A stretch of 64,000 nt of DNA, taken from assembly GCA_029742005.1 (NCBI GenBank), contig GCA_029742005.1_4113.1; one strand, written 5' to 3'. Below are positions 7,279-56,666 of this stretch, piece by piece. This DNA is from a phage. Within the stretch, counting starts at the first letter, position 1; each line of letters opens with the position of its first letter. Below the pieces are notes generated by a model. The model was not told the DNA's origin. It worked only from the letters and a program-made list of their open reading frames with translations, and did not search any database. The position numbers were made by a program, and so were the translations under genes.

Positions 7279-7494
7279 AAAGAATTGAAAAAGGGATTGA
7301 CTCCGGTCAGTCCCTTTGCTATTATATATTCATTGAAACAATCTAGCCCACAGGGTGCATAAATGTATCTATTGTTTGCTGGTGGCTAGTACTATCAAGT
7401 ACTGAAAACTATTTTTAAAAAGTACTTGCAAAGTATCACGATAAGCGTATAATGTTTTACATCAGGACGGGGAACGAAACAAGTAACTCCCCGT
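7279..7494 (+). repeat. intergenic cassette copy 2
   Basis: GGGATTGACTCCGGTCAGTCCC hairpin, conserved core, Chi GCTGGTGG 7378-7385, TTGCAA/TATAAT 7447-7452, stem-loop ACGGGGA..TCCCCGT. Confidence 0.6.
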
Positions 7495-8629: not shown

Positions 8630-8677
8630 AGACTCTAACTTGTAGTACTAATTAACTTAACTAATAGGATGTACACC

Positions 8678-9073
8678 ATGATTACTAAATTCTTCGCTAC
8701 CCGTGAACAAGCTCGCATCGTTGCCCGTGAAGAAGGTGAAACATTTAAAGACATGGGCAAAGATGCACCGAAAGGACAACGCTGGGCGGTACAGTTCAAA
8801 GAGATCTCTGATATTGTGAATTCACCTGAACCAGTACTTACTGAAGCAGAACTAAAGCAAGCTCAAGAACTGGCTGAAGTACTGAACGCTCAAGATGACT
8901 TCTTGGAAGGTTCTGATATTCAAGTACAAGTGAATAGTAATGCATGGACTCACGCGGATCACCTGGCAAACCTTAAGCGTCCAAGTGAACTGATTCGTAA
9001 CCAGAAAGAGATCCGTCATGACCGTAAAGGAAACCGTGTAACAGTATACAGTAAACGCCGCCAGGTTATCTAA
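8678..9073 (+). CDS. hypothetical protein
   Basis: track frame 8669..9073; ATG 8678 better spaced from RBS AGGAT. Confidence 0.7.
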   Translation: MITKFFATREQARIVAREEGETFKDMGKDAPKGQRWAVQFKEISDIVNSPEPVLTEAELKQAQELAEVLNAQDDFLEGSDIQVQVNSNAWTHADHLANLKRPSELIRNQKEIRHDRKGNRVTVYSKRRQVI

Positions 9074-9095
9074 TAACTTGCAGTACTAACAACAC

Positions 9096-9122
9096 GGCGG
9101 GTTCAGTTCCCGCCTTTTTTAT
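9096..9122 (+). terminator. rho-independent terminator
   Basis: GGCGGG-TTCAGTT-CCCGCC then T6. Confidence 0.75.
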
Positions 9123-9135
9123 AGGATAAACTAAA

Positions 9136-9390
9136 ATGATGAAGGTACAACTATCTAAAGATAATATCTTGCGGGTACACTATAAAGCACCACAGAGAAT
9201 CATCACAAAGGCCGTACAGCTTGCTAATGAGTTTATTAATGGTAGTCTATTACCCAGGAAGTTAAGCAACGGAAAACTACGTGTTATCGATGTAGACACT
9301 AACAATAGAATAGTAATTGAGAGTACTGGAAAAATTAATCTATATGAACACCAACAATACAATAAAAAAATAAAACTAATATCACGTTGA
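9136..9390 (+). CDS. hypothetical protein
   Basis: ORF track; RBS AGGA; AT-rich. Confidence 0.45.
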   Translation: MMKVQLSKDNILRVHYKAPQRIITKAVQLANEFINGSLLPRKLSNGKLRVIDVDTNNRIVIESTGKINLYEHQQYNKKIKLISR

Positions 9391-9415
9391 CAGTACTCAA
9401 TTGTTTTAGTATTAT
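9387..9415 (+). promoter_or_regulatory. sigma70-like promoter (duplicated at 9666)
   Basis: TTGACAGTACTCAATTGTTTTAGTATTAT. Confidence 0.55.
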
Positions 9416-9446
9416 GTATCTATACCAACACAGAGAGAGAAACAAA

Positions 9447-9665
9447 ATGAAATTATCTAAAATCGAAAAGAAAACTATTGATGAAGCAGTGAAGCACGGT
9501 TATACCTTTCGTAATGATTCACATTTTACCAATTTTCAACAAGGGTATCGTACTATTAAAAAACTAATTGACAAAGGTTTATTAGTTGAAGTCAATAACG
9601 GCAATGGCATTGAGTATCAACCAACACAAGACGCATTATCACTAAAGAAATATTCTATTATCTAA
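9447..9665 (+). CDS. hypothetical protein
   Basis: track ORF 9387..9665 starts at the -35 box; start moved to ATG 9447. Confidence 0.6.
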   Translation: MKLSKIEKKTIDEAVKHGYTFRNDSHFTNFQQGYRTIKKLIDKGLLVEVNNGNGIEYQPTQDALSLKKYSII

Positions 9666-9694
9666 TTGACAGTACTCAAATGTTTTAGTACTAT
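9666..9694 (+). promoter_or_regulatory. sigma70-like promoter (near-identical copy of 9387)
   Basis: TTGACAGTACTCAAATGTTTTAGTACTAT. Confidence 0.55.
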
Positions 9695-9722
9695 GTACGC
9701 ATACCAACACGGGGAAAACAAA

Positions 9723-9950
9723 ATGATTACTTTAGAAAAACGTATCAAAGAGACTACAACGCTGGTGGAACTGTTAACCGTTCTTAAATGCCGGGTAACT
9801 CCATTCAGTACACCGGACTTTATCAACATGGTGGACGTTAACGGTCGATATCGTATTGCGGTCGAACAAGGTACGGCAAAAGTATTCAGTACTAAAAATA
9901 CGCGTGAAGTATTCCACGCAGTTCAAGTAAAAAAAAGTAGTTGCCATTGA
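9723..9950 (+). CDS. hypothetical protein
   Basis: track ORF 9666..9950 starts at the -35 box; start moved to ATG 9723. Confidence 0.6.
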   Translation: MITLEKRIKETTTLVELLTVLKCRVTPFSTPDFINMVDVNGRYRIAVEQGTAKVFSTKNTREVFHAVQVKKSSCH

Positions 9951-9997
9951 TAGTAAAGTACTGTAATATAGTTTCATTAACTCAAGGAGTCAACACA

Positions 9998-10582
9998 ATG
10001 CGTAACTATACTAAATTCATCCGTTCACTTCATGCAATGGAAACCAACAAAGAGATCCTTTCAGCTTGTCGGTTAGCTGGACTGGAGATCGTCGGTGCGG
10101 GTTCTTCCCGTATTGTATTCGCTTTAAATGATCGGTTAGTGATTAAGGTCGCGAATTGTGATGCGGGTGTAGAACAAAATGAAACTGAATGTAAGGTATG
10201 GAATTTTTTAGATTATGACCGTCCGCACCTTAAACAGTTCTTTGCCAAGGTGCATATGCATTTATGCGATCCTGATAATCTGTTTATTGTTATGGATCGT
10301 TTGAGTACTGCAAGCAAAGGCAGTGTAAAGCATGTAAACGCGTGCAATGAGTTAAAGTACAATATTAAACGTAATACGGTAGAACGCCAACACCATTTCG
10401 CTGATGCTCTCAATCACGTTGATGATACATTATCCACACTAACGATAAGAGATATCAGAAAACAGAATATCGGCCAGGATCGCAACGGCTTGATTAAAGT
10501 ACTTGATTACGGTTTAACCCGCAATATCTGGAATCAGTACTATAAAAAACGTGATGTTAACGCGATAACTATAACACGATAA
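9998..10582 (+). CDS. putative protein kinase (eukaryotic-like kinase fold)
   Basis: VIKV (VAIK-like), IRDIRKQNIG (HRD-loop-like), DYG (DFG-like) in order; start moved to ATG 9998 behind RBS AAGGAG. Confidence 0.6.
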   Translation: MRNYTKFIRSLHAMETNKEILSACRLAGLEIVGAGSSRIVFALNDRLVIKVANCDAGVEQNETECKVWNFLDYDRPHLKQFFAKVHMHLCDPDNLFIVMDRLSTASKGSVKHVNACNELKYNIKRNTVERQHHFADALNHVDDTLSTLTIRDIRKQNIGQDRNGLIKVLDYGLTRNIWNQYYKKRDVNAITITR

Positions 10583-10784
10583 AAAAGATTAAAAAAGGGA
10601 TTGACTCCAGTCAGTCCCTTTGCTATTATATATTCATTGAGAGATAACTCACTGACCCATAGGGTGCGGAAGTGTATCTATTATATAAGTATTCAGTACT
10701 GAAAACTATTTGATAAAAAGTACTTGCAAACTATCTCAAAGAGCGTATAATGTTTTATATCGAGAGGGGGAAATGGTTTCCCCT
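10581..10784 (+). repeat. intergenic cassette copy 3
   Basis: GGGATTGACTCCAGTCAGTCCC hairpin, conserved core, TTGCAA 10724-10729, TATAAT 10746-10751, stem-loop GAGGGGGAAATGGTTTCCCCTC. Confidence 0.6.
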
Positions 10785-10803
10785 CAAGTCCAGGAGATAC
10801 ACC

Positions 10804-11067
10804 ATGAACACTATCGAAATCACTATCAATGCACACGTATACGACAACGTAGTACTGCAAACTACTATGACCGCTAACGATACCAGTACTTTGCGGAATA
10901 CTGTTATTAGTGCTGTATGTGCCGCTATCGGTGATGTCGCCCTGGAAAATGCAAAACACGTAAACGATGGTTTCACTATGTGCAAACGTGATAACGCAAA
11001 ACATATCATCGTAGAAGGTTACGGCGGTGTAGAATATAATGTTTATATGAAAAAAGTACTTGCATAG
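10804..11067 (+). CDS. hypothetical protein
   Basis: track ORF 10750..11067 starts in the -10 box; start moved to ATG 10804 behind RBS CAGGAGA. Confidence 0.65.
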   Translation: MNTIEITINAHVYDNVVLQTTMTANDTSTLRNTVISAVCAAIGDVALENAKHVNDGFTMCKRDNAKHIIVEGYGGVEYNVYMKKVLA

Positions 11068-11115
11068 TACTGAATAAAGCGTATAATGTTTTGCATAGGG
11101 GGAGATATCCTCCCC
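11060..11115 (+). promoter_or_regulatory. early promoter plus 5' stem-loop (PeSL-like)
   Basis: TTGCAT, TATAAT 11082-11087, hairpin GGGGGAGATATCCTCCCCC. Confidence 0.6.
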
Positions 11116-11134
11116 CACTAAAAGGAGTATTAAA

Positions 11135-11359
11135 ATGGCTAACTTTGATGAACTGATGCGGGAAGTAGCTAACCTGGCAGAAGAGAAGAAATCATTCGAT
11201 TCTATCTATAACACCGCTCACCGTGATTCAGTACTGGCATGTAACCAGGATCAAAAAGATGAACTAATCGCCACATATCATGAAGCATGGAAGTACTACC
11301 GACAATGGGAGAAAGAAGAAAGCGAGTCTACCATCGAAGGTATCAATAATCTAATCTAA
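11135..11359 (+). CDS. hypothetical protein
   Basis: ORF track; RBS AAAGGAG. Confidence 0.7.
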   Translation: MANFDELMREVANLAEEKKSFDSIYNTAHRDSVLACNQDQKDELIATYHEAWKYYRQWEKEESESTIEGINNLI

Positions 11360-11378
11360 AAGTTTTATTTCAGTACTA

Positions 11379-11407
11379 TTGACATAGCTTGATAGTACTG
11401 ATATGAT
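11379..11407 (+). promoter_or_regulatory. class-2 promoter
   Basis: AGTACTATTGACA..GATAGTACTGATATGAT. Confidence 0.5.
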
Positions 11408-11434
11408 AACTTTACTAACTAAAGGGGAAACATA

Positions 11435-11692
11435 ATGGAACAGTTCACACAATATCGGGTAAATCCTCAAGCGATGGCCTACGTAGAAGACCATAAAACG
11501 TTACCAGTACTGCAACCAGTTAAAGGCCATATCTATCGTGCAATGTCGTGGAGTGCGGCCCAGGATGGATATAAAACCGTCGCCGTGGGGATGTATTGCG
11601 GGAATGGTGAATGGTTTGATCCTAACAATCCGATTGCACTTGACAGTACTGAAAAAATGAAATGGGCCGACTACATCGAAGATATTTCATAA
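11435..11692 (+). CDS. hypothetical protein
   Basis: ORF track; RBS AAAGGGGAA. Confidence 0.7.
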   Translation: MEQFTQYRVNPQAMAYVEDHKTLPVLQPVKGHIYRAMSWSAAQDGYKTVAVGMYCGNGEWFDPNNPIALDSTEKMKWADYIEDIS

Positions 11693-11698
11693 AAACTA

Positions 11699-11760
11699 TT
11701 TGACAGTACTAACCAGTAATGTATAATGTTTTACATAGAGCGGGGGAATAGTTCTCCCGC
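11699..11760 (+). promoter_or_regulatory. early promoter plus 5' stem-loop (PeSL-like)
   Basis: TTGACA 11699-11704, 17-nt spacer, TATAAT, hairpin GCGGGGGAATAGTTCTCCCGC. Confidence 0.65.
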
Positions 11761-11782
11761 CAATAGTTTGGAGTAAAACATT

Positions 11783-11983
11783 ATGTCTATCGCTATCGCC
11801 CTGGTTGAAGTACTGAAAGAAGCTAAAGCCAACCTTATCGATGTACAGATTAAGGAATTGCAAAACGGCTTAATCGGCTGTACTTGTACCGCTGGTGGAG
11901 CGGCAGACTATCGAGAACACGAATCACTCGAATCACTGGTTCGGTATCTTACCATGATCGTTGATGATTGGAGAATCATCTAA
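11783..11983 (+). CDS. hypothetical protein
   Basis: ORF track; RBS GGAG. Confidence 0.65.
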   Translation: MSIAIALVEVLKEAKANLIDVQIKELQNGLIGCTCTAGGAADYREHESLESLVRYLTMIVDDWRII

Positions 11984-12208
11984 CAAAAAAGAATAAAAAA
12001 GGGATTGACTCCGGTCAGTCCCTTTGCTATTATATACGCATAGACAAAAACTAGCCCACTGGGTGCATAAGTGTATCCAAAATATATAGTTAATAACGGT
12101 GAGTAACTATCTGCTGGTGGAGTGAAAACTATTAATAAAAAAAGTATTGACAAAGTATATCAGTACTGCGATAATGTATCTCGTAGGGCGGCAATGGTGC
12201 GACGGCCC
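11984..12208 (+). repeat. intergenic cassette copy 4 (most diverged)
   Basis: GGGATTGACTCCGGTCAGTCCC hairpin, core GCCCACTGGGTGCATAAGTGTATC, Chi 12113-12120, TTGACA/GATAAT promoter, GC-rich stem-loop. Confidence 0.55.
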
Positions 12209-12568: not shown

Positions 12569-12630
12569 TTGCATAGTACTTAGATTCATGTATAATGTTT
12601 TACATAGAGAGGGGGAAATGGTTCTCCCTC
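12569..12630 (+). promoter_or_regulatory. early promoter plus 5' stem-loop (PeSL-like)
   Basis: TTGCAT 12569-12574, TATAAT 12591-12596, hairpin GAGGGGGAAATGGTTCTCCCTC. Confidence 0.6.
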
Positions 12631-12650
12631 CTAAATTAAGGAGTTTTATC

Positions 12651-13052
12651 ATGACCTTCTCAATCACTTCCTTCGCTGACGTTTTAGTACTGGCTCGGAC
12701 TTTTGGTAAAGATGCACTGGAGTACGCTGTAAGTAATGGCACTATCCAACCGGAACAGTGCCGCATCATTGGAAACTGCAAACGTTGGGCGGTATCCAAT
12801 ACTATTGCACTGGAAAACTTCAACGATGGCAACAATGAATATTCTGTTGATGCAGTATTCGAAGCCGTAGACCTGGGCGGTATCTATAACACTAACCTGA
12901 ATGATGTGCGTATCGTTCGCACTGGCTTCGGTGCTTATGATGTATCTATCCGTGAAGCTATGGACAAGGGATACATTAGCAAGGACCAGTTAGCTTACAT
13001 CATGCAGCAAACTAAGGAGCGTAACGAAGCCCGTACTATCTTAGGGTTGTAA
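12651..13052 (+). CDS. hypothetical protein
   Basis: track ORF 12588..13052 starts in the promoter; start moved to ATG 12651 behind RBS AAGGAG. Confidence 0.7.
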   Translation: MTFSITSFADVLVLARTFGKDALEYAVSNGTIQPEQCRIIGNCKRWAVSNTIALENFNDGNNEYSVDAVFEAVDLGGIYNTNLNDVRIVRTGFGAYDVSIREAMDKGYISKDQLAYIMQQTKERNEARTILGL

Positions 13053-16625: not shown

Positions 16626-16837
16626 TCAACATCACATTACAAGAAAGATTCATCCGAATCAACTATGCAATTTCCAAATTAGATGCTACAATAGGATTTC
16701 AAAGTCTACCGTTCAAAACCAGAATGATATTAGAGTGCGAAGCCAGGTTAGGTGTACTGTTAGGGACGCAACACCAACAACGATATGTGGAAATCTGGAT
16801 TGATCTTTTAACCCAAAATGCACATGAGAGAATGTAA
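16622..16837 (+). CDS. fam1 small protein
   Basis: track frame 16610..16837; start moved to ATG 16622 (RBS GAGG); motif LLGTQHQQRY. Confidence 0.6.
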   Translation: MINITLQERFIRINYAISKLDATIGFQSLPFKTRMILECEARLGVLLGTQHQQRYVEIWIDLLTQNAHERM

Positions 16838-17068
16838 ATGCAAAATGAAATGATATACTTAACACATGATGAATTTCAAGAGAAGATGTTAAAAGCCAAT
16901 AACATTACTCTTAAGTTCGTTCCAAATCAATCAATATATGAAATGTCTGCGAATGTATTGTTTGAGAAGCTACCATACGTTCTTGGAACTGATAAACAAG
17001 AATTTATGGTTCAAAATATGATTGAGCATCTTGCAATGAGTATTATGGAAAAAGTAAATGCAAAATGA
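16838..17068 (+). CDS. fam1 small protein (MQNEM subgroup)
   Basis: ORF track; motif VLGTDKQEFM; N-terminus MQNEMIYLT shared with next two genes. Confidence 0.6.
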   Translation: MQNEMIYLTHDEFQEKMLKANNITLKFVPNQSIYEMSANVLFEKLPYVLGTDKQEFMVQNMIEHLAMSIMEKVNAK

Positions 17069-17318
17069 AATGAAATACTTAACATATAATGAATACGTCG
17101 AGAGATTAGTTAGTGCCAAGAGATATGCCAATCAACTTCCTAATGATCCAAACCAAACCCCAGAGGAAAAGAATGCGGAAGCTCTATTCCAAGCACTACC
17201 ATACCTTCTTGGAACTGATAGGCAGGAGTATCACGTTGAACGTATAATTAAATCTCTTAAAATCACTATTAAGGAAAAAGTAAATGCAAAAGGAAATGAT
17301 ATACTTAACAGACGATGA
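17058..17318 (+). CDS. fam1 small protein (MQNEM subgroup)
   Basis: ORF track; motif LLGTDRQEYH. Confidence 0.6.
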   Translation: MQNEMKYLTYNEYVERLVSAKRYANQLPNDPNQTPEEKNAEALFQALPYLLGTDRQEYHVERIIKSLKITIKEKVNAKGNDILNRR

Positions 17319-17541
17319 GTTAAAAGAACGATTAATTAAATCCAGAAAACTTACAAATCAACTTCCAAACGACACAAACAAGTCACCTGCCGAAAGGAGT
17401 GCAGAAGTTTTATACATTCAACTCATGTACTTTCTTGGAACTGACAGACAAGAGTATTACATTGAAAGTATGCTTCGATATCTTAAATTCTCTATAAAGG
17501 AAAAGATACATGCTCAAGAATTTAAAAATCCTAACAGCTAA
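17284..17541 (+). CDS. fam1 small protein (MQKEM subgroup)
   Basis: ORF track; motif FLGTDRQEYY. Confidence 0.6.
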   Translation: MQKEMIYLTDDELKERLIKSRKLTNQLPNDTNKSPAERSAEVLYIQLMYFLGTDRQEYYIESMLRYLKFSIKEKIHAQEFKNPNS

Positions 17542-17767
17542 TGAATATCATAAGATTGTAATGGAAACTAATAGTGCTTACGCTAAAAAATCAAACCCAA
17601 AGTATATACTGGAACACACATTTGAAGAACGTCAATTAGCTCTAGTTGAAGCAAAACTTCTTGCACTATTAGGAACAAACTATCAGGAAGAATACAATAG
17701 AAAACTAATATACCTTTTAACTAAACACATCAGGAAAAGAAAAAAGCATGAAACACTTGACAGATGA
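17510..17767 (+). CDS. fam1 small protein
   Basis: ORF track; RBS AAGGAAAAG; motif LLGTNYQEEY. Confidence 0.6.
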   Translation: MLKNLKILTANEYHKIVMETNSAYAKKSNPKYILEHTFEERQLALVEAKLLALLGTNYQEEYNRKLIYLLTKHIRKRKKHETLDR

Positions 17768-17978
17768 TGAACATGGGCTTATAGTAATGGATGTAATCAA
17801 CATCGAATTCAAAAAGTTGATACGCTACCGTTGTTATGAAGATAAGCAACTCGTTCTAGCAGAACAGAAGTTGTTTCGACTCTTAAACACAAACTACCAA
17901 GCACAATACGAAGAATCGTATATGTACCTTTTGGCGAGGAAAGCAAAAAGAGATTATGAAAATTTTAAGCCACGATAA
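17748..17978 (+). CDS. fam1 small protein
   Basis: ORF track; motif LLNTNYQAQY. Confidence 0.6.
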   Translation: MKHLTDDEHGLIVMDVINIEFKKLIRYRCYEDKQLVLAEQKLFRLLNTNYQAQYEESYMYLLARKAKRDYENFKPR

Positions 17979-54797: not shown

Positions 54798-55059
54798 ATT
54801 ATAAAGATTTCCTACTAACATACAAGATTATTCGAGATTTAGCACACGACAATGATAGCCCTAGTCTAGAAGACACATGCACTGAAATGATTCATACGAT
54901 TCGTGGTAAGATTAAAAAAAATTCAGTACTGTTATTATTGGTGATGACCATGCAGAATTTTCTGATATAATCATTAGACGTGATGGTAAAGTTGAGGTTC
55001 AGTACTACACTGATTTTGGATTTACCAGTATTCCGTTGGAGATATTCCCTTGGGATTAA
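54794..55059 (+). pseudogene. fam3 copy disrupted by a frameshift at an A8 run
   Basis: ATG 54794 opens a fam3-like frame that stops after about 58 codons; the rest continues in another frame across an A8 homopolymer near 54919. Confidence 0.4.
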
Positions 55060-55361
55060 ATTTAAATGATATACAATTCACTTATAAGATCCTATATGAT
55101 TTGTATGATTTATACCTTGTTAGTAACAAAATAGGTTCACATAACTCATCCAAAGAACAACCATTTATTGATTTATATATTGAGTACTTAGATTCAGTAG
55201 GTGAATATATAAAAAAGAATTACAGTACTTTTAACGATGGAAATGATATATTCGAGTTCTCTGGAGTTAAATCATACAATGGGATTATCCATGTTGAATT
55301 TCTTGAAATAACCGATAGGGGATTTATCGAGATTAAAGTTGTGAAGTTGGTGAATTTATAA
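55050..55361 (+). CDS. fam3 small protein (TTG start per track)
   Basis: ORF track with non-ATG start; signature LNDIQFTYKILYDLYDLY. Confidence 0.5.
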   Translation: MGLNLNDIQFTYKILYDLYDLYLVSNKIGSHNSSKEQPFIDLYIEYLDSVGEYIKKNYSTFNDGNDIFEFSGVKSYNGIIHVEFLEITDRGFIEIKVVKLVNL

Positions 55362-55371
55362 GAGGTTACAT

Positions 55372-55683
55372 ATGTTATTAAATGATATACAATTCACATA
55401 CAAATTTTTGTATATCCAATACGCTACGGTTGATGCTGGAGAATATCTCTACGGTGAAATCTATCGTTCGGTATGGATAAAGTTTTTGGATGAATTACAT
55501 GAATATTACCATGATTTGTGTATAGTTCGTGATAATAAAATATACAAATTCCTCGATATTGTTAGTCATAGCGGTAAGCTACGATTGGAATTAAGTACTG
55601 ATAGTGATGTTGATTGGATTGGTGTAAATTTACTGGAGTTGGAGAATGAAAAACAACTTAAAGGAAATACAAGTATTTTATAA
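55372..55683 (+). CDS. fam3 small protein
   Basis: ORF track; RBS AGAGG; signature LNDIQFTYKFLYIQY. Confidence 0.6.
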   Translation: MLLNDIQFTYKFLYIQYATVDAGEYLYGEIYRSVWIKFLDELHEYYHDLCIVRDNKIYKFLDIVSHSGKLRLELSTDSDVDWIGVNLLELENEKQLKGNTSIL

Positions 55684-55930
55684 ATTCTTATACTTGTCAT
55701 ATGTAAAAGATGAGTACTATGAAAGTGTGTATTATTTTTTATGGCAACATTACCGTACTATAGTAAGAGATTTATATATAGGAAAATCTATCATATCCAA
55801 TGGTGAAAAATGTATATGTACTGATGTTGTTAGTTTTAATGGTTCGTTAACACTGTGTTTCAGATGCGATAATAATAGTGGGTCATTTTCATTAAACGTA
55901 TATCAGTTAGAAGGAATAAATTTTGAATAA
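55646..55930 (+). CDS. fam3 small protein
   Basis: ORF track; signature EIQVFYKFLYLSY. Confidence 0.55.
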   Translation: MKNNLKEIQVFYKFLYLSYVKDEYYESVYYFLWQHYRTIVRDLYIGKSIISNGEKCICTDVVSFNGSLTLCFRCDNNSGSFSLNVYQLEGINFE

Positions 55931-56123
55931 ATGTCCATATTGTAACAGTACTCAATTAGCTCGTTTCCGTTTAGATTCAGACTGGGCGACTGGTGCTGGT
56001 GATTTCTTCCCTATTAATGATGATGCGGAATACACCGAAGAACAGCACAAAGATTTTGATAAATCATGGCGACCTGACATTGAGTGCATTTATTGCCTTA
56101 ATTGTGAGCGTGTTCATGACTAA
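55923..56123 (+). CDS. small zinc-ribbon protein
   Basis: ORF track; CPYC..CIYCLNC (two CxxC pairs). Confidence 0.55.
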   Translation: MNKCPYCNSTQLARFRLDSDWATGAGDFFPINDDAEYTEEQHKDFDKSWRPDIECIYCLNCERVHD

Positions 56124-56379
56124 AGCTGAACTAATAGTTCATACATATAAAATGATATCAAGTACTAAGTTATCATATAGTGAAGATAATCCAGTACTGG
56201 ATTATTTTGTTGAATTATTGAAAGAGCATTATATTGGTAAATCACTGATTCTTAATAATATTAATTTCACGGTAAAGGATGTAGCACCTGGAAAAAACGT
56301 ACTAATAGTATGTGTTACTTCATCTGATAACCCAGTATACCCAATATCAATAATTTTTGAGATATTAGGAGATTTATGA
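56116..56379 (+). CDS. fam3-like small protein
   Basis: track frame 55993..56379 overlaps upstream gene; start moved to ATG 56116. Confidence 0.5.
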   Translation: MTKAELIVHTYKMISSTKLSYSEDNPVLDYFVELLKEHYIGKSLILNNINFTVKDVAPGKNVLIVCVTSSDNPVYPISIIFEILGDL

Positions 56380-56666
56380 ATATCATTTTAATGCAGAAAA
56401 CATATGCTATATTGGTGAAAGATTATTCCATTACTTTCGATTCACAAGAAAGTGCTCTACATAACCTATACAAAAACGTAACACAAGAATACAGAAATAT
56501 GTTTTCTGACTTAGTAGTAGGAAGGTATTTCAGTACTAGAAAATACCCAAAACTTCAAATAGTTGATGTTTCTTTTTATTTCAATGGTCATATTACTATT
56601 CATACTTTAGACCAAGATTCAACAACGTACTTAAACTTTTCATTTGATGAGGTAACATTTTTATGA
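56376..56666 (+). CDS. fam3 small protein
   Basis: ORF track; signature MQKTYAILVKDY. Confidence 0.55.
   Translation: MNIILMQKTYAILVKDYSITFDSQESALHNLYKNVTQEYRNMFSDLVVGRYFSTRKYPKLQIVDVSFYFNGHITIHTLDQDSTTYLNFSFDEVTFL

Follow-up and report, generated by a model that had tools for sequence, protein, structure and literature searches.

Can a phage protein of 194 amino acids (aa) be a protein kinase and, if so, of which kind? The question is raised by a gene at positions 9998–10582 (+) of a 64,000-nucleotide (nt) stretch of phage DNA (GenBank assembly GCA_029742005.1, contig GCA_029742005.1_4113.1), hereafter called the window. Judged from sequence comparisons and a predicted structure, its product is almost certainly homologous to the core of the eukaryotic-like (Hanks) kinases, and it amounts to roughly one half of a kinase domain rather than a complete one.

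The open reading frame (ORF) begins with the ATG at 9998, its stop codon ends at 10582, and a ribosome-binding site, AAGGAG (9984–9989, +), can be read off the sequence 8 nt 5' of the start. A longer version starting from a TTG at 9941 is unlikely because the N-terminal residues M1, N3, K6 and F7 are kept in relatives of ~40% identity. The ratio of non-synonymous to synonymous substitution rates (dN/dS) is 0.16–0.17 against three orthologues, with no substitution at any motif residue; this is a real gene under purifying selection. Searches, a structural model and dN/dS together describe 9998–10582 (+) as the coding sequence of a truncated protein-kinase-like protein of the family PHROG 4301, with kinase subdomains I–VII only. 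The window DNA is that of an Asteriusvirus jumbo phage: a megablast search with positions 9000–12000 returned 37 phage records at 90–95% identity, all of them Asteriusvirus jumbo phages (E. coli, Salmonella; ~350 kb). The closest protein match to the kinase ORF is gp308 of 121Q (AIT14198.1), which is 97.9% identical at the aa level and annotated 'hypothetical protein'.

Fold, motifs and truncation of the protein

The original prediction, a note made from the DNA letters alone, had proposed a kinase fold for a 194-aa ORF carrying LVIKV, IRDIRKQNIG and DYG in canonical order. All three elements are present (K50; D152 and N157; residues 170–172), and several comparisons have since borne the fold out. 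The two best Pfam matches are PK_Tyr_Ser-Thr (PF07714; expectation value (E) 0.0011, 18.8 bits against a gathering threshold of 23.1) and Pkinase (PF00069; E 0.003, 17.4 bits against 31.7). All of the 60 best matches in a PDB sequence search are protein kinases, headed by MKK4 (E 0.0013), and the NCBIfam and PADLOC scans yielded weak generic kinase matches alone (PknB, PD-T4-6). A profile search gathered 59 relatives, 55 of which form alignment A2 together with the window protein; the sub-threshold Pfam matches that recur among these 56 members are all to the kinase clan (Pkinase in 12/56, YrbL in 4, ABC1 in 4). Aligned by hhalign with reference sequences of PKA, CDK2 and PknB, A2 gives a probability of 95.2% (E 2.9e-8, 133 columns) and runs from the glycine-rich loop to just past the DFG motif, that is, over PKA residues 46–191 or subdomains I–VII. 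In GenBank, the homologue of Klebsiella phage Muenster (QOE32215.1) carries the remark 'putative protein kinase, HHpred 6J5T_M 99.9%'. Since the hhalign result agrees with the Pfam matches, the PDB sequence matches and this HHpred remark, the fold assignment is secure.

Structure prediction against kinase folds, which had been proposed as a check, gave the same answer. The AlphaFold2 (AF2) model built from A2 is confident (predicted local distance difference test score 94.5, predicted template modelling score 0.90). It comprises, in order, two N-terminal helices, strands beta1–beta3, a long alpha-C helix, beta4/5, alpha-D, alpha-E, the catalytic loop, beta7, beta8, DYG and one short helix, after which the chain ends. 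In terms of a Hanks-type kinase, this corresponds to the whole N-lobe and the first half of the C-lobe. Its significant Foldseek matches in the PDB are all kinase-like (MEK1, Legionella Lpg2603, OSR1, PknB, Csk, APH(2'')), with modest values (E ~1e-4, template modelling (TM) scores 0.41–0.47).

PHROG 4301 is the sole strong family match of the window protein (E 2.8e-42, residues 1–190). It is labelled 'unknown function' and has no Pfam model, and distant members match it too. The family shares only ~20% identity overall. Its conserved residues were tallied in 246 domain instances found with the family profile in 201 family representatives, drawn from clusters at <=50% identity. The glycine-rich, ATP-phosphate-binding loop G33-A-G35-S-S-R38-I-V40 (10094–10117, +) aligns with that of PKA in hhalign and keeps G35 in 226 of 235 domains, S36 in 212 and R38 in all 235. 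It had been called degenerate; it is instead a conserved variant, GxGSSRxV, in which the third glycine of GxGxxGxV is replaced by the invariant Arg38. The 'VAIK' lysine of strand beta3, K50 (10145–10147, +), lies on model strand 47–52 and is present in 236/236 domains; it is the VAIK-like lysine of the original prediction. On the alpha-C helix (residues 55–73 of the model), the motif Q60-N61-x-x-E64 (10175–10189, +) combines the usual alpha-C glutamate E64 (235/236) with an adjoining Gln-Asn pair that is specific to the PHROG 4301 family (Q60 233/236, N61 230/236).

In the catalytic loop D152-I-R-K-Q-N157 (10451–10468, +), D152 is found in 221 of 231 domains (96%), with Glu in 8 more. The label 'HRD-type' fits this loop poorly. 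R151 is not conserved, the family majority being Gly and a 91%-identical orthologue reading IIDISKTN, and the position of the HRD histidine, 150, is I, P, A or V in the family and never His; D152 alone persists throughout the family, and N157 is retained in the RaK2-like clade. The DFG-equivalent, Mg-binding motif D170-Y-G172 (10505–10513, +) was recognized correctly as DFG-like: D170 and G172 are each present in 231/231 domains, with Y or F between them. Near-invariance of K50, E64, D152 and D170 favours an active enzyme over a pseudokinase, and catalytic activity of some kind is quite probable. The family-specific residues R38, Q60 and N61 may replace contacts lost with the catalytic-loop lysine and the activation segment, or could instead mark a conserved acceptor.

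The window protein ends at residue 194, 22 residues past G172, and the model shows a single short helix (175–182) after DYG. Subdomains VIII–XI, with the activation segment and its APE motif, the alpha-F Asp, helices alpha-F to alpha-I and the subdomain XI Arg, are absent from both protein and model. The same holds across the family, where single-domain members and each unit of tandem members also stop ~20 residues after DYG. This anatomy of PHROG 4301, a 'half-kinase' of subdomains I–VII with an Arg in the glycine-rich loop and a Gln-Asn pair on alpha-C, distinct from the kinase of phage T7 and closer to the Hanks kinases, is what the present analysis adds, along with the wide spread of the family in huge phages and its occasional occurrence as tandem arrays or within a tape-measure protein.

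Relation to T7K and to other small kinases

The Hanks kinases (PF00069/PF07714) share with the window protein the glycine-rich loop, the beta3 Lys, the alpha-C Glu, the catalytic Asp (with the Asn in this clade) and the DFG-like DYG, all in register with PKA 46–191. They differ from it in possessing subdomains VIII–XI, a third glycine in the loop where the window protein has Arg, and the HRD His/Arg and catalytic-loop Lys, which are not conserved in the PHROG 4301 family. Among truncated kinases, OspG has about 196 aa; it and NleH, effectors that are delivered or expressed to act on the host, are similar in size to the window protein and have the same minimal core (subdomains I–VII). Both lack subdomains VIII–XI; OspG, for which a host substrate has been identified, also phosphorylates itself (PMC12756638). 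Activation of OspG depends on E2~ubiquitin, which has no bacterial counterpart, and neither sequence nor structure searches found specific similarity of the window protein to OspG or NleH; they are parallels to it, not relatives.

Small kinase-like families of bacteria, YrbL (PF10707) among them, also measure ~200 aa. Distant family members have sub-threshold YrbL matches (best E 1e-5 within the alignment, and 7.5e-7 for the member P0077), but the window protein has none in the Pfam search and no family member reaches the curated cut-off. The Brenner motif HxDxxxxN and the C-terminal helical substrate subdomain of aminoglycoside- and choline-type kinases are absent from the window protein, and no closer similarity to RIO or Bud32 than to ordinary kinases was seen.

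A further comparison is with gp0.7 of phage T7 (T7K; Pfam family PF27024). T7K is a hyper-promiscuous anti-defence kinase, recently shown to act against several defence systems of bacteria by phosphorylating proteins on a mass scale (PMC13645617). Both proteins are encoded by phage genes on DNA near the left genome end, and their AF2 models have the same order of secondary structures: helices at the N-terminus, then a kinase core extending to ~25 residues past the DFG-equivalent; the kinase part of the T7K model stops right after DPV. Models of T7K-family proteins in BFVD superpose on that of the window protein with TM scores of 0.52–0.58, above those of any solved kinase (0.41–0.47), and some PHROG 4301 members have a T7K-like catalytic loop, DMHxxN. 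At the sequence level, hhalign of the family against an 11-sequence T7K alignment gives a weak match with all motifs in register (probability 60%, E 8.6e-5), and against the single T7K sequence a probability of 0.2%. The 11 sequences are diverse T7K relatives gathered from phage records, including WNN14432.1 of phage Sharanji. A search for T7K homologues had found 814, and all of the 120 matches listed were at least 69% identical.

Other features separate the two proteins. The window protein belongs to PHROG 4301 and matches no T7K PHROG at E <= 1, whereas T7K belongs to PHROGs 2828, 15752 and 18305 and not to 4301. The window protein has DYG with an invariant Gly; T7K has DPV, and both T7K and the T7K-like paralogue of jumbo phages read ITDP. 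A DP motif in place of DFG has been described for the T7K family (PMC13645617), which fits the WNN14432.1 type and not the kinase studied here. Unlike T7K, the window protein keeps the alpha-C Glu and the Gln-Asn pair. It is also without T7K's C-terminal shut-off domain, the next ORF starting after a hairpin/promoter element; jumbo-phage T7K homologues likewise lack that domain (PMC13645617). Finally, the PHROG 4301 family aligns with canonical kinases at an hhalign probability of 95%, as against 10% for the T7K alignment. The window protein thus has the layout of T7K but is not a member of the T7K family, and T7K is its closest functional analogue.

Asteriusvirus phages do encode a T7K-like protein of their own, a second mini-kinase. 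In Sharanji this is WNN14432.1 (L009:383–1057, −), 224 aa long and reading 'DIHSSN...ITDP', which ends ~20 residues past its DFG-equivalent and is encoded ~46 kb from the gene studied here, outside the window. The Sharanji paper treats it as a T7 kinase homologue, separate from WNN14351.1, the orthologue of the window protein (PMC11895373). A T7K homologue within the window was also sought, and rejected: tblastn of T7K gave chance matches only, the best (E 0.22) at 55769–55909 in small paralogous ORFs. These belong to a run of five adjacent ORFs of 94–128 aa (55050–56666, +), several with similar N-termini (e.g. LNDIQFTYKxLY), which look like tandem paralogues.

Genomic setting and distribution of the family

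The kinase gene lies among small ORFs of the plus strand. ORFs of at least 60 aa that start with ATG number 159 on the plus strand of the 64-kb window and 19 on the minus strand, and near-consensus sigma-70 promoters 42 and 17, respectively, with the highest density at 4–16 kb; the window has no tRNA genes. Directly upstream is a small ORF of 75 aa, counted from its ATG (9723–9950, +), without a Pfam match, which adjoins the kinase gene in other genera too. A promoter match ahead of this ORF (9666–9694, 10 of 12 consensus positions) could drive the kinase gene by read-through. Right after the kinase stop codon comes a hairpin-plus-promoter element (10594–10629, +), whose 12-base-pair (bp) stem holds the −35 box TTGACT and is followed by TG-n-TATTAT. 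A 36-bp element, AAAGGGATTGACTCC[A/G]GTCAGTCCCTTTGCTATTAT, of which this is one copy, occurs three times in the window (7290–7325, 10594–10629 and 11998–12033, all +), where no copy is expected by chance. At 10594–10629, the kinase transcript probably ends and that of the following unit begins; the element may serve both to end one transcript and to restart transcription, or it may be a regulated promoter.

In related phages, the orthologous gene sits in the terminal repeat. It occupies 16,690–17,274 in vB_Ec-M-J, within an annotated direct terminal repeat of 21,525 bp, and 17,325–17,909 in Muenster, within a 20,030-bp terminal repeat; in XbC2 and EJP2 it lies 6–7 kb from the start of the record, and in records that include both repeat copies it appears twice. 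In the RaK2-like phage CBB, a region of short ORFs with RpoD-like promoters that runs into the terminal repeat has been read as the early host-takeover region (PMC5259590). The claim that the gene stands in an early block is plausible from its setting, with small plus-strand ORFs, sigma-70 promoters and orthologues in the terminal repeat 6–18 kb from the left end; early expression itself is likely, going by that setting.

Other features of this region are noted here in their own right. Two genes 5' of the kinase, an 84-aa ORF (9136–9390, +) has a ParE-like toxin domain (PF24732, E 3e-10, above the cut-off), and its product is 65% identical to that of a Muenster gene annotated 'YafQ-like ribonuclease toxin'. 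The promoters at 9387–9420 and 9666–9700 (+) share an extended, near-identical sequence that reaches well beyond the −35 and −10 boxes; read as ORFs, the two stretches start MTVLNCFSIMYLYQH and MTVLKCFSTMYAYQH. Two small ORFs without Pfam matches, at 12588–13052 (+) and 8669–9073 (+), have homologues in Muenster, Munch and EJP2 (43–86% identity) and in Muenster and EJP2 (35–42% identity), respectively; with the kinase, they constitute a core of the terminal-repeat region that is conserved across genera.

The PHROG 4301 family is very widespread in huge phages. A HMMER scan of 1.84 billion cluster representatives (50% identity) found 1,774 proteins at E <= 1e-3, 133 of them at E <= 1e-10, mostly of 160–300 aa. 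Distant members come from phage-like contigs of 247–424 kb, near rIIA/rIIB-like, EF-Ts and NAD-salvage genes and otherwise among unrelated neighbours. No conserved partner, such as a phosphatase or a substrate gene, was found for the kinase gene; the small upstream ORF alone stays adjacent in some genera. A pattern scan for the close family, of limited sensitivity, found no close relatives in representative bacterial and archaeal genomes, and a scan of IMG/VR, limited by its narrow patterns, returned no more than 121Q and a single contig of 189 kb. Several relatives have more than one copy of the domain. The metagenomic proteins P0066, P0074 and P0070–P0073 are single ORFs of 640–970 aa with 3–4 complete mini-kinase domains in tandem, each with its own N-terminal helices and an intact set of K, E, D and D, and about 17 more relatives have two copies. 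In P0135, a protein of 3,248 aa, a tape-measure domain (PF10145, residues 125–315) is followed by mini-kinase copies at 665–831 and 860–1034. Because the tape measure is ejected at infection, this architecture suggests that the domain may be delivered with the virion in some phages.

The kinase call is not new, having been made for orthologues in GenBank, in UniProt and in one paper. Homologues in Munch (AZU97990.1), Muenster (QOE32215.1), Turkey3, Turkey5, ph0011 and fEgEco12 are annotated as (putative) protein kinase, most other records having 'hypothetical protein'. The UniProt entry for PBECO4 (L7TKF0) reads 'Protein kinase domain-containing protein', and the Sharanji paper labels WNN14351.1 'another protein kinase, which function is unknown' (PMC11895373).

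What the half-kinase may do

The reading favoured here, with a confidence somewhat better than even, is that of a minimal, probably constitutively active protein kinase of broad specificity, made soon after infection and acting on host proteins. Mg-ATP would be bound between the lobes, with Mg2+ held by D170 and, in this clade, N157; D152 would serve as the catalytic base for transfer of the gamma-phosphate, and Arg38 and Gln60/Asn61 would substitute for contacts that the catalytic-loop Lys and the activation segment make in full-length kinases. As there is no activation segment, no P+1 loop and no alpha-F to alpha-I, there would be no control by loop phosphorylation, and the substrate site would be open. 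Such a site would favour phosphorylation of host proteins on Ser/Thr, possibly Tyr, with low specificity, as in T7 gp0.7 and OspG/NleH. Transcription would be by host RNA polymerase, starting at sigma-70-type promoters in the terminal repeat near the left genome end, presumably the first DNA to enter the cell, and the kinase would act in host take-over or against host defences. Phosphorylation of the host transcription or translation machinery, which the original prediction had named as typical of early phage kinases such as T7 gp0.7, is conceivable by analogy.

Several observations weigh against such a kinase, and some of them lend weight to other explanations. The window protein scores below the gathering thresholds of both PF00069 and PF07714, none of the 56 aligned family members reaches a Pfam cut-off, and the E values are only ~1e-3, as might be expected if a small phage protein unrelated to kinases had come to resemble their motifs by chance. 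This is very improbable: the 60 best PDB sequence matches are kinases without exception, and as far as computation reaches, the explanation is refuted. The promoter-like site that precedes the gene (TTGCCA-17-TAATAT, sigma-70 type, 9941–9969, +) is weak, with 9 of 12 consensus matches. Position 157 is N in the RaK2-like clade but N, H, S or Q in the family at large. Nor is the Lys of the catalytic loop (K155) conserved, a basic residue being found in only about half of the domains. Truncated kinase folds such as Rio and Bud32 work mainly as ATPases. The protein might accordingly be no transferase in practice, but an ATPase switch or ATP-dependent binder like these two, or a pseudokinase scaffold that blocks a host protein. 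Varying Mg-binding Asn and catalytic-loop Lys would suit this, as would the tandem arrays of 2–4 domains, which could be scaffolds. It is nevertheless quite unlikely, because a pseudokinase would hardly be expected to keep K50, E64, D152 and D170 almost without exception, and because OspG, NleH and T7K set the precedent that a protein truncated to this shape can phosphorylate proteins.

Another alternative is that the enzyme is a kinase whose substrate is not a protein but a small molecule, a nucleotide, a signalling molecule, RNA or an envelope sugar, with the same ATP site and an acceptor pocket formed by Arg38, Gln60 and Asn61. These three residues are 97–100% invariant in a family of ~20% identity, which is typical of a fixed ligand; such invariance suggests one conserved ligand or reaction and is less fitting for a promiscuous protein kinase. 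The parts with which protein kinases bind peptides are, moreover, missing from the model. Against this stand the profiles, which point to Hanks kinases and not to the APH, choline-kinase or Rio families, the want of a Brenner-type His at position 150, two before the catalytic Asp (I, P, A or V being found there), and the fact that enzymes of the APH type use a C-terminal helical subdomain for their substrate, which the window protein does not have. On balance, a non-protein substrate is unlikely.

A broader proposal is that PHROG 4301 constitutes a distinct class of 'half-kinases' with a catalytic solution of its own, in which Arg38 and Gln60/Asn61 do the work of the catalytic-loop Lys, of the activation segment and, in many members, of the Mg-binding Asn. 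Working independently of T7K, it would be a second system for phosphorylation during the first minutes of infection, deployed as single early proteins, tandem arrays or tape-measure modules, and its substrate could be proteins of host defence or a conserved molecule other than a protein. In this full form, the proposal is possible and doubtful.

As it stands, the finding amounts to a correct annotation, derived from sequence and already made for orthologues. If the protein is active, RaK2-like jumbo phages would have two phosphorylation tools for host take-over, a T7K-like gene and an unrelated mini-kinase gene in the terminal repeat, and the PHROG 4301 family, with its 1,774 clusters at 50% identity (E <= 1e-3), would represent an unexplored group of viral kinases of considerable size. 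The window protein is among the smallest kinase cores known, and would lend itself to studies of how small the catalytic unit of a protein kinase can be.

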